IMG/VR virus record: IMGVR_UViG_2537562194_000030 | Span: 1-15,821 of that record | Direction: 5' to 3' (one strand) | DNA length: 15,821 nt | Source: a virus | Taxonomy: Duplodnaviria > Heunggongvirae > Uroviricota > Caudoviricetes | Part shown: positions 1 through 3,000 of the stretch, in pieces | Layout of the letters: each line of letters opens with the position of its first letter | Numbering within the stretch: the first letter of the stretch is position 1 | Position numbers: made by a program

Positions 1-3000
1 GTGAATTTTGTGGCAGGCAATCCGGAAGCGGACCCGGAGCAGGAGCTGAGCGACCGCTGGGTGGTGGAGCAGATGTCAGAGCTGACGGCCATGACGGCCT
101 CGTTTGTGCTGGCGACACCGACGGAGACGGACGGAGCGCTGTTTCCCGGTCGCATTATGCTGGCGAATACCTGTATGTGGACCTACCGCTCTGATGAGTG
201 TGGTTACACGGGCGGGGCTGTGGCGGATGAGTTCGATAAACCCACCACGGATATCCGTAAGGACAGATGCAGCAAGTGCATGCGCGGGTGTGAGATGCGC
301 GGCATGGTGGCTAATTTTGGCGGTTTCCTTTCCATTAATAAACTTTCGCAGTAATGGATTATGCCCACCGTCAGGTGGGTTTTTTATTTAGTAGTTCTCT
401 CAACTTTTCGTTCTGCTCTCTGAACTTTTCCTGTATTTCTTTTTGCATGGCGATAACCTGGGCTTGAAGTTGAACTAGCGCATCAACATTTAGCGGAACC
501 GAGACGCTGTTAATTTTATCTGCTATTTCCCCGAGTGTATTTTCTGCATTCAAGGCATCTTCCAGTATCTGAACAATCTCTGAGTTCATAGAGCGCCCGT
601 TTCGTTTGGCTCGTTCAGCTATAGCATCTCGCATTCCGTCAGGAAAACGGAGGTTGAACTTGTCGTAGTCTTTTACTTGTTTTTCGGCCATTGCAAATCT
701 CTCAAAAAAAATCATGGTGCCATATTGCCATACGATTTCAATAGTGGCATTATGGCCTTCATGGCGTCACTTTGGCACCAAATAAAGGAGATTAGATAAT
801 GCAAGATACACTTTTCACTGAGCGCAAAAATATCAAACTCAACCTTCGCCTTCCATCACGGCTGAATGAAGACCTTCGCCGCCTGGCGGAAATGGACTGT
901 ATATCTCTGAACTCTGCAATTGTTCGTTTGCTGGCAAAAGGTGTTAGGGAAGAGGTGGCGAATGGTCGCTAAAAACAGCGAAGCCTCAATGGCTGCAACC
1001 ATTGAGGCTTCTAAATTACCAGTTAACCACGAGAAAACTGATATGACTAGTTTAGCAATTGCAGATCGCACAATCAATGTTCCATTCCACGGAACAAATC
1101 TCTTTTTGGTTGGAATTAACAATGAGCCTTATGTTCCTATGAAGCCTGTTGTTGAAGGTATGGGGATGGTTTGGGCTGCTCAATTTGTTAAGTTAAAACA
1201 GAGGTTTGTCAAGGGTATTTCGGAAATCGAAATACCTTCTGCTGGCGGTAAACAGTTAATGACATGTCTTGCCTTTCGTAAATTTGCGGCTTGGCTTTCA
1301 AGCATTCAACCAAACAAAGTCCGCCCTGAAATCCGCGACAAGGTAATCCAGTATCAGGAAGAGTGTGACGATGTGCTCTACGAGTACTGGACTAAAGGCC
1401 ATGTGATTAACCCGCGCAAAGCTAAAAAGGCATTGCCGGGGAAAATCACCACTGAACAGCAGGAAGCCATTAAACAACTCGTCATGAGTCGCGGTCAGTC
1501 TCTGCCAAAAGAAAAACAGGCGAAGGCGATGATCACCATGTGGTCGTCACTGAAATCTCATTTTGGGTGTTCATACAAAGAAATCAGCGAGGAGCAGTTT
1601 ACCGAAGCTCTGTCCTTGCTGCTCGCGTTCCGCTTGAAGGAGAGTTAATCGGCAAACAAGAGAAGAGCACCAACGAGCTTTCCGCAAAAGAAGCAAACAG
1701 CCTTGTATGGCTATGGGATTATGCCAACCGCTCACAGGCATTATTCCGCGAATTGTATCCAGCGCTAAAGCAAATTCAATCGAACTATTCCGGCAGATGT
1801 TACAACTACGGTCATGAGTTCTCGTATGTTATTGGAATGGCGAGAGACGTTTTAATCAATCACACACGAGATGTTGATATTAATGAGCCAGACGGACCAA
1901 CGAATCTTTCCGCATGGGTAAGGCTTAAGAACAAAGAATTACCTCCTTCACTACATCACTACTAACAGATTGCCAACGAAATGACCCAGCTTCGGCTGGG
2001 TTTTTTATCAGGAGTTCTCATGCTCTATAGCAATATATTGGCGCACGCCCGGCGATGTGCGCCAGCGGAGTCGTGCGGCTTCGTGGTGAGAACGCCGGAG
2101 GGGGAAAGATATTTTCCCGGCGTGAATATTTCCGGTGAGCCGGAGGCGTATTTCCGTATGTCGCCGGAGGACTGGCTGCAGGCAGAGATGCAGGGTAAGA
2201 TTGTGGCGCTGGTCCACAGCCACCCCGGTGGTCTGCCCTGGCTGAGTGAGGCCGACCGGCGGCTGCAGGTGCAGAGTGATTTGCCGTGGTGGCTGGTCTG
2301 CCGGGGGGCGATTCACAAGTTCCGCTGTGTGCCGCATCTTACCGGGCGGCGCTTTGAGCACGGGGTGACGGACTGTTACACGCTGTTCCGGGATGCCTAC
2401 CATCTGGCGGGAATTGATATGCCGGATTTTGAGCGTGAGGATGACTGGTGGCGCAATGGTCAGAACCTGTACCTGGACAATATGGAGGCGACTGGTTTTT
2501 ACAGGATTTCCCTGCCTTCCGCACAGCCTGGCGATATCCTGCTGTGCTGCTTTGGCGCATCGGTGGCCAATCATGCCGCCATTTACTGCGGCAACGGTGA
2601 ACTGCTTCACCATCTGCCTGAACAACTGAGTAAACGGGAGAGGTATTCTGAAAAATGGCAACGACGAACGCATTCTGTCTGGCGTCACCGCCACTGGCAC
2701 GCATCTGCCTTCACGGGGATTTGCAACGATTTGGCCGCCGCCTCAGCCTGTACGTGAACACGGCAGCGGAAGCCATCCGTGCCCTGTCGCTGCAGATGCC
2801 GGGATTCCGCCGTCAGATGAACGAAGGCTGGTACCAGATACGTATTCGCGGTGAGGACACGGCACCGGAGGCGGTGTACGCCCGTCTTCACGAACAGCTG
2901 GGTGAGGGAACGGTCATCCACATTGTGCCGCGACTGGCCGGGGCCGGAAAGGGTGGACTGCAGATTGTGCTGGGGGCGGCAGCCATCGTGGGCTCTTTCT

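Follow-up and report, generated by a model that had tools for sequence, protein, structure and literature searches.

Mirrored candidate operator elements in the mnt-arc control region of an immI-like module from a Shiga-toxin phage

The virus record IMGVR_UViG_2537562194_000030 (Caudoviricetes; positions 1 to 15,821, the whole of which we refer to as the window) carries a module resembling the immI region of phage P22, in which genes for an Mnt-like and an Arc-like ribbon-helix-helix (RHH) protein diverge from a 107-bp control region. Within this region lies an exact 8-bp inverted repeat. We consider it slightly better than an even bet (probability about 0.55) that the two arms are the outer, specificity-carrying ends of two mirror-image elements of 16–17 bp, and that these elements are operator parts for RHH repressors. 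Together with a related element between them, the left, middle and right elements (OL, OM and OR) are best explained as the operator set of a P22 immI-type switch that would control antirepressor synthesis. The weight of the repeat derives from comparison with relatives, not from the window alone.

Inverted repeat, composite elements and promoters

The features of the control region, including the candidate rightward promoter Pant and three candidates (P1 to P3) for the leftward promoter Pmnt, are as follows.

692–798 (strandless): control region, 107 bp, between the divergent mnt-like and arc-like genes, from the open reading frame (ORF) map; homologues in ~125 distinct relatives
715–722 (+): left arm TGGTGCCA, outer end of the left element; exact inverted repeat
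773–780 (+): right arm TGGCACCA, reverse complement of the left arm; exact inverted repeat
714–730 (+): OL, left composite element (ATGGTGCCATATTGCCA), arm plus Pant −35 hexamer; inverted copy at 745–756 (11/12), mirrored at 765–780
743–757 (+): OM, middle element (AGTGGCATTATGGCC) over the Pant −10; related to OL
761–782 (+): OR, right composite element (ATGGCGTCACTTTGGCACCAAA) at +1 to +22 of Pant; mirrored copy of OL
725–753 (+): Pant candidate, −35 TTGCCA (725–730), 17 bp, extended −10 TGgCATTAT (745–753), start near 760; consensus scan
714–741 (−): P1, leftward mnt promoter candidate, TTGAAA (741–736), 16 bp, TGgCACCAT (722–714); overlaps the left arm
741–770 (−): P2, leftward candidate, GTGACG (770–765), 18 bp, CACTAT (746–741), a weak −10; uses the mirrored −35-like hexamer
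749–778 (−): P3, leftward candidate, GTGCCA (778–773), 18 bp, CATAAT (754–749); consensus scan
785–790 (+): ribosome-binding site AAGGAG of the arc-like gene

The initial annotation had described the arms as exact reverse complements with a related sequence between them, lying in the intergenic region of a divergent mnt-arc gene pair. All of this holds. The coordinates are exact, with 50 bp between the arms and 58 bp from start to start; the intervening sequence is GTGGCATTATGGCC at 744–757, whose core (745–756) is an 11/12 inverted copy of 719–730; and the repeats fall within the spacer 692–798, with ant and a sar-like RNA downstream of arc. The gene names are likewise borne out by the RHH character of both flanking products (Pfam Arc and BLASTP matches to P22 Mnt and Arc, given below). 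The 8-mer has no further copies in the 15.8-kb window. The repeat is longer than first noted, reaching 13 nt at 85% (715–727/768–780), and the mirrored 16-mers of the window, TGGTGCCATATTGCCA and CGTCACTTTGGCACCA, are identical at 12 of 16 positions (13/16 in common variants). Each arm forms part of a short near-palindrome, ATGG-TG-CCAT at 714–723 on the left and the 12-bp TTTGG-CA-CCAAA (TTTGGCACCAAA) at 771–782 on the right, the latter at about +11 to +22 of Pant. TGGC[AC] pentamers are over-represented in the spacer (5 observed vs. 1.2 expected, P=0.003), and boxes of TGCCA/TGGCA type stand 8 bp apart inside each element.

For comparison, control regions were collected from 7 annotated phages, 61 viral contigs with the window Arc type, 79 bacterial genomes and 160 further viral contigs, yielding ~125 distinct sequences in groups that are not phylogenetically independent. 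We compared the window type (W; W+Arc1 denotes window Mnt with window Arc) with the Salmonella SPN3UB type (S) and with other specificity groups. The left arm is invariant in 16 distinct W-type variants, and the right arm in the W+Arc1 variants. The 16 distinct SPN3UB-type regions vary in the mnt leader and early in the Pant spacer, and their Arc proteins are as little as 62% identical; despite these variable surroundings, the left arm with its −35 (TATTATGGGGCCAACTTGACAT), the motif CAATGGTGTTAA and the right arm (TTGGCCCCA) are invariant, which points to purifying selection. The homologous left arm proper, TGGGGCCA, is unchanged in 15 of the 16 S-type variants, and the homologous right arm, TGGCCCCA, in the S-type variants. 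Between the two types the arms differ by a compensatory T:A to G:C change, from TGGTGCCA/TGGCACCA in the window to TGGGGCCA/TGGCCCCA in the SPN3UB type, which alters the arm centres from TGG-TG-CCA/TGG-CA-CCA to TGG-GG-CCA/TGG-CC-CCA.

A mirror rule extends through the family. In nearly all types, a 16-mer made up of the Pant −35 hexamer and the 10 bases before it recurs inverted 45–50 bp downstream, with 10–16 of 16 positions identical. In a comparison of 11 specificity groups, the 9 outermost nt of the left element agreed with the reverse complement of the right partner from their own group at 7.7 of 9 positions, vs. 5.3 of 9 for the partners of other groups; with the best offset permitted in every comparison, none of 50,000 permutations reached the observed sum. 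The earlier proposal that the arms are candidate operators is therefore kept in a modified form: they are conserved and co-vary like operator parts, but they are not self-contained, being the outer ends of the two 16–17-bp elements.

The gap between arm and −35-type hexamer is 2 bp in all groups, and the arm-to-arm distance differs by type (58 bp in the window, 54 bp in the SPN3UB type), so that two separate composite sites fit better than one bridging or looped complex. DNA looping between the arms was rejected on these distances and on the 45–50-bp range of the mirrored 16-mers across groups, since phasing is not kept; an invertible segment between the arms was rejected on general knowledge, 50 bp being too short. 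The mirrored part of OR spans ~764–780, or about +5 to +20 of Pant, and OR is identical at 17 of 20 positions to the right element of the SPN3UB type. OM occurs in tandem repeat in GF-2 and other relatives that combine a window-type Mnt with a different Arc (Arc2). Position 743, just 5′ of the Pant −10 and within P2, is A in the window and G in most relatives (ATGGTG to ATAGTG), in a conserved CAATGGTG motif.

The divergent promoters expected of this region are partly accounted for. A conserved sigma70-type Pant lies between the arms, with its −10 hexamer CATTAT at 748–753 and TG upstream. A simple weight-matrix scan recovers it at the same position in every related type (scores 7–14.7), with a spacer of 16–17 bp and mostly with a consensus TTGACA and a TG-extended −10, and it is the positional homologue of the annotated P22 Pant. 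For Pmnt, whose position we infer from sequence, there are the three candidates listed above. The P1 position gives the top minus-strand match in most types, with differing hexamers (TACAAT, TAGCAT, TATTGT); its equivalent in the S type, CATAAT, ranks second or third. By position, P2 answers to Pmnt as annotated in P22, where a mirrored hexamer serves as the −35 too; most types have such a mirrored −35-like hexamer. Leftward and rightward promoters overlap for P1, P2 and P3 alike and should thus be mutually exclusive.

Other signals were considered and set aside. The highest-scoring plus-strand match, TTGGCA (772–777)-17-GATAAT (795–800), would use the right arm as a −35; we judge it fortuitous, since the −10 would run into the arc start codon and the site is not preserved in the SPN3UB type. 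A sigma-54 promoter (TGGCAC-N5-TTGCW) was rejected since TGGTGC-CATA-TTGC has N4, the wrong spacing; the only match to the pattern in the spacer has 2 mismatches, and such matches are rarer in the window than expected by chance. No LexA SOS box (CTGT-N8-ACAG) was found at up to 1 mismatch within 1–2600, including near 692–798, and no Rfam family matches the spacer, the only match being the sar-like RNA downstream.

Under the proposed mechanism, RHH repressor dimers or tetramers would sit on OL, OM and OR. Occupation of OM and OR would cover the Pant −10 and +1 to +22 and block Pant, so that neither Arc nor Ant would be made and lysogeny would be kept. Occupation of OL would block the Pant −35 and, with it, the overlapping leftward mnt promoter (in its −10 or early transcribed region), which would amount to autoregulation. 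With the opposed promoters overlapping, RNA polymerase would be expected to use one at a time.

Repressor specificity and competing explanations

The Mnt-like protein is the more likely binder of the arms and the one that comparison favours family-wide. In ~10 groups, arm type goes with the first 20 residues of the Mnt-like protein, and window-type Mnt modules retain the left arm when combined with another Arc. GGATTAA/TTAATCC arms are unchanged with at least six unrelated Arc beta-strand types, and in groups with the Mnt strand DKFTVRFP the arms co-vary independently of Arc. An early hypothesis that the arms follow Arc type as a family-wide rule was overturned by this GGATTAA group. The GGATTAA/TTAATCC loci with at least six Arc types (L077, L252, L253, L259, L277 and L306) have an essentially unchanged control region, in which nothing in the spacer tracks Arc type. 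The sorting of arms with Mnt is not clean, because the left arm is physically linked to mnt and co-inheritance contributes to it.

Other observations bring the Arc-like protein into play. Window-type and SPN3UB-type modules have the Arc strand KNIKLNLRLP in common and nearly equal arms, and their inner sequences differ with the Mnt N-terminal arms; this exact box pair occurs with the window Arc type only. A Xenorhabdus module combines an SPN3UB-type Mnt with another Arc and has GGATTAA/TTAATCC arms. Aligned to P22 Arc and Mnt, the Mnt-like and Arc-like proteins of the window have the same predicted DNA-facing residues K, N and R, whose roles we take to be those in published work on the two P22 repressors. 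The boxes could consequently be common to both, and the Arc-like protein may use the same boxes as the Mnt-like one. For assigning one arm to Mnt and the other to Arc the sequence gives no basis.

A further possibility, which we think unlikely, is that at least 12 or so immunity specificities travel with the Mnt N-terminal arm and that arc-like genes are swapped freely, the control region staying as it is. In many immI-like modules the Arc-like protein would then either leave the region between mnt and arc alone or share the sites of Mnt. One repressor would run such a switch as a mirror-symmetric toggle, with each box ~42 bp in front of the start of one promoter and ~16 bp past the start of the opposed one (reading P2 as Pmnt). 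If true, this logic would differ from the two-operator scheme of P22.

Several points weigh against operator function of the arms. The 8-bp repeat taken alone is not significant, because exact inverted repeats of at least 8 bp occur in 10% of 5000 dinucleotide-preserving shuffles of the 107-bp spacer (P ~0.10) and at least 2 copies of the 8-mer in 20 of 200 shuffles of the whole window. Arm invariance among the W-type and E. coli relatives says little, as these are too similar: with ~14 variable sites in 107 bp, all of them would miss the arms with a probability of ~0.1. Groups with GGGGCCAA and with GGATTAA arms have one and the same Mnt beta-strand, DKFNLRFP, the differences being limited to residue 2 and two conservative positions; simple reading of the arms by this strand is thus excluded. 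In three hybrids (L239, L244 and L251) the arms do not match. A plausible extended −10 of a leftward promoter falls on the left arm, and the mirrored inner hexamers resemble −35 elements, so that part of the conservation may reflect promoter function. Lastly, ant is frameshifted in the window, and this copy of the switch may therefore be decaying and no longer matter to the phage.

That the repeat is an accident, functionless by itself, draws on the shuffled spacers and on the near identity of the E. coli relatives, which makes their conservation uninformative; we find it scarcely credible in view of arms that are invariant in the diverged SPN3UB-type regions, of the compensatory change and of the family-wide co-variation that no permutation reproduced. 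A second reading, very improbable in our estimate, places selection for complementarity at the level of RNA or of a DNA cruciform, for instance as a long-range stem, and possible processing site, in late transcripts reading through from L to K. It would suit arms that co-vary while the protein beta-strands stay unchanged and the perfect inverted repeats of 16–21 bp in some relatives (L061, L077), and the plus-strand RNA of 700–800 does fold better than 200 of 200 shuffles (z = −2.8). The predicted fold, however, pairs the left element with the middle one rather than arm with arm, and mismatches in the mirrored 16-mers show no excess of G-U wobble (156 other; 45 wobble on the plus strand, 84 on the minus strand). 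Moreover, neither a Pant transcript nor an mnt transcript from P1 or P2 would contain both arms, and the spacer is without an Rfam match.

Greater weight, though still that of an improbable account, goes to the arms being promoter parts without repressor contact, the inverted repeat arising as a by-product of two mirror-image promoters. The left arm would be a TG-extended −10 (TGgCACCAT, 722–714) and the right arm would belong to a second leftward promoter, as its −35 or its upstream edge. Leftward candidates do overlap both arms (TTGAAA-16-CACCAT with TG at 741–714; GTGCCA-18-CATAAT at 778–749), the mirrored −35-like hexamer is a family feature that matches the annotated Pmnt −35 in P22, and the left arm stays with mnt under any Arc type. 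Yet the arm does not contain the best leftward −10 of the SPN3UB, GGATTAA and L224 types (CATAAT, TACAAT), which is adjacent to it. In these types the arm is part of the promoter spacer, a stretch without sequence requirements for RNA polymerase, and is nevertheless invariant and group-specific. GGGCCA and GGATTA make poor −35 hexamers, and where promoter function would lead one to expect a single consensus, the arms split into at least 11 co-varying sequence types.

The main rival is binding by the Arc-like protein only, which we regard as possible but unlikely. The arms would be a box pair specific for that protein, each TGG-NN-CCA binding one Arc-like dimer; the boxes would sit ~9 bp outside the two mirrored −35-like hexamers, Arc would shut both opposed promoters, which P22 Arc achieves from one central site, and Mnt would use inner motifs of the GGTG(G/T)CA type. 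This accords with the occurrence of TGG(G/T)GCCA on both sides only with Arc KNIKLNLRLP, in two Mnt and inner-sequence contexts and with a compensatory change at the centre. Window-type Mnt combined with another Arc has variable right ends (GGCCCCT, GGCCTCT, GGCCTCA, GGCCTTT) and loses the exact match; where SPN3UB-type Mnt is paired with other Arcs (L077, L239, L244), the arms are different. The 17/20 identity of OR to the SPN3UB-type right element suggests that it arrived along with arc, and the inner motif GGTGTYAA is common to all KYPSQMQ-DKFNLRFP Mnt modules, whatever their arms. Against it, the GGATTAA and DKFTVRFP-Mnt groups have co-varying arms that do not change over many Arc types, so that family-wide the arms are not Arc-specific; the left arm is unchanged with the other Arc type; L222, with another Arc type, has TGGCCCCA on the right; and the association with the window Arc type is based on just two independent lineages. 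On balance we retain the reading of the arms as ends of RHH operator elements, with Mnt as the likelier binder.

The antirepressor module and its carrier

The module is a P22 immI-like insert of mnt-like, arc-like and ant genes with a sar-like antisense RNA, placed between tail genes L and K within the late operon and with a terminator on each side. Its parts and borders are listed below.

1–354 (+): end of tail gene L, from the gene map
363–380 (+): terminator, hairpin and T-run; left border of the insert
371–691 (−): mnt-like gene, 106 amino acids, N-terminal RHH and a C-terminal half that looks helical by sequence; Pfam Arc PF03869, 1.4e-20
799–972 (+): arc-like gene, 57 amino acids, RHH; Pfam Arc, 1.4e-4, over the family cut-off
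977–1043 (−): sar-like antisense RNA at the arc-ant junction; Rfam RF00262
1043–1965 (+): ant antirepressor gene, broken by a 1-base deletion near 1614; P22_AR_N and P22_AR_C
1983–2002 (+): terminator, hairpin and T-run; right border of the insert
from ~2021 (+): tail gene K; annotated start equivalent to ~2021

The window is a Shiga-toxin-converting (Stx) lambdoid phage of E. coli O157, with 99.9% identity to 2851, YYZ-2008 and Stx2a_WGPS6. The region 340–1100 is 99.6–100% identical to many Stx phages of E. coli O157 and O55, including these three and 1717, and a similarity search with it found the module in many Stx1 and Stx2 phages. A search of 5426 complete E. coli genomes with a 301-bp probe spanning the repeat region gave matches in 274, and in the probe-positive genomes both neighbouring genes carry the annotation 'Arc family DNA-binding protein'. 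In E. coli 2013C-3250 (NZ_CP027380.1, 2894988–2895318) the probe matches as two pieces across 331 bp, which suggests an insertion of ~30 bp in or near the control region; one neighbouring gene there is annotated as a HicB-family antitoxin. A literature search found no experimental paper on this module or its operators, only genome annotations.

The Mnt-like protein matches PF03869 with 73.3 bits and the Arc-like protein with 22.1 bits (cut-off 20.4). By BLASTP, the former is 50% identical to P22 Mnt over 42 amino acids in the DNA-binding domain (E=6e-13) and the latter 30% identical to P22 Arc (E=7e-6); sequence matches of the Mnt-like protein in the PDB are to Arc, AmrZ and Mnt. In a relative, the arc-like gene is annotated 'Arc-like repressor' and the mnt-like gene 'Arc family DNA-binding protein'. 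The C-terminal half of the Mnt-like protein (residues ~55–106) is helical and heptad-like by sequence, and such halves are mosaic across relatives. One of them (…NAENTLGEIADKINS…) is fused to four N-terminal DNA-binding types, at loci L149, L177, L224 and L285; as judged from these sequences, the four loci show domain shuffling between DNA-binding and presumed oligomerisation domains.

The two ant domains (P22_AR_N, 2.5e-40; P22_AR_C, 1.1e-29) lie in different reading frames in the window, and the gene is intact, with 334 amino acids, in Stx2a_WGPS6; the window copy is either a pseudogene or the product of a sequencing error. The real start of ant is probably the ATG at 1043 and not the annotated start equivalent to 962. 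The sar-like RNA is a full-length RF00262 match (1043–977, minus strand) that scores 29.5 bits, under the gathering score of 43 bits (E=0.0022), and ends in a strong minus-strand terminator, a 14-bp hairpin (1011–980) followed by a T-run (to 970). A possible promoter for it, TTGATT (1078–1073)-17-TAAACT (1055–1050), was spotted by eye. At the right border, the terminator at 1983–2002 precedes the annotated K start (~2021), yet an ORF starting at 1981 reads through it. Elsewhere in the window, a DinI-family gene (12912–13160, minus strand; Pfam 1.1e-18) has a perfect LexA-box palindrome, CTGTGTTTGTATACAG (13176–13191), 16 bp upstream; a second LexA-box palindrome, CTGTATAAATAAACAG (13204–13219), lies 28 bp beyond the first and abuts the 3′ end of a phage integrase gene (13222–14319, minus strand).

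Antirepressor modules decide whether prophages, including Shiga-toxin prophages, stay silent or are induced, and they bear on the induction of one phage by another. From the comparative map come exact, testable coordinates for the candidate operators and promoters, along with a set of natural specificity variants (at least 11 arm types) that could be used to dissect DNA reading by RHH repressors and the evolution of immunity specificities by module exchange. The practical weight for this window is limited because ant is frameshifted.

Relation to known regulatory systems

Gifsy-type prophages carry LexA-controlled antirepressor modules, as described by Lemire et al. (2011). The window module is similar in placing an antirepressor gene outside the main immunity region of a lambdoid prophage, and it differs in having no LexA box in or near 692–798; control here would be exerted by phage RHH proteins.

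RHH repressors are familiar binders of multi-subsite operators, such as the 8-bp met boxes of MetJ, the omega heptads and the sites of CopG and AmrZ, in which short boxes of 7–8 bp, direct or inverted, stand at short fixed spacing. The likeness to the window lies in short repeated boxes at fixed spacing, and the boxes themselves have no sequence similarity to those operators. In phage lambda, OR1–3 with PR and PRM form a tripartite operator with divergent promoters, in which helix-turn-helix repressors bind 17-bp palindromes of one orientation class. The window recalls this arrangement in having three related sites over two opposed, mutually exclusive promoters, and in the specificity groups formed by co-varying operator and repressor types. 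It differs in that the repressors are of the RHH and not the helix-turn-helix kind, and lambda is without mirrored outer arms.

The likeness to P22 immI is seen in several features of the module. The mnt-like and arc-like RHH genes diverge; arc leads into an ant that has the two antirepressor domains of P22; the junction of arc and ant has a candidate sar-like antisense RNA; terminators flank the block, which is inserted in a late operon; and a strong rightward promoter is opposed by leftward candidates, with a mirrored −35-like hexamer on the other strand. The carrier is a long-tailed lambdoid Stx phage, unlike P22, with the insert between tail genes L and K. The initial annotation had further expected an Omnt/Oarc architecture as in P22, and this expectation is not supported. 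In P22, two compact palindromes are adjacent, Oarc (21 bp) inside the Pant spacer and Omnt (17 bp) at the start site, from −6 to +17. The window has instead three related elements of 15–17 bp, of which one, inverted, covers the −35, another the −10, while the third lies at about +5 to +20. No Oarc-like palindrome was found in 731–747 of the Pant spacer, the first part of which is the variable part in the SPN3UB-type alignment, and no Omnt-like palindrome of 17 bp, only the 12-bp near-palindrome at 771–782. The centre of this near-palindrome is 9 bp outside the mirrored −35-like hexamer, as is the Omnt centre in P22. Mirrored outer arms are present in the window and not in P22 (5/9 matches, equal to background), and the mirrored hexamer lies 35–40 bp from the Pant −35 in the window family vs. 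28 bp in P22. The putative operator layout is a variant of the P22 immI region and not a new kind of system.

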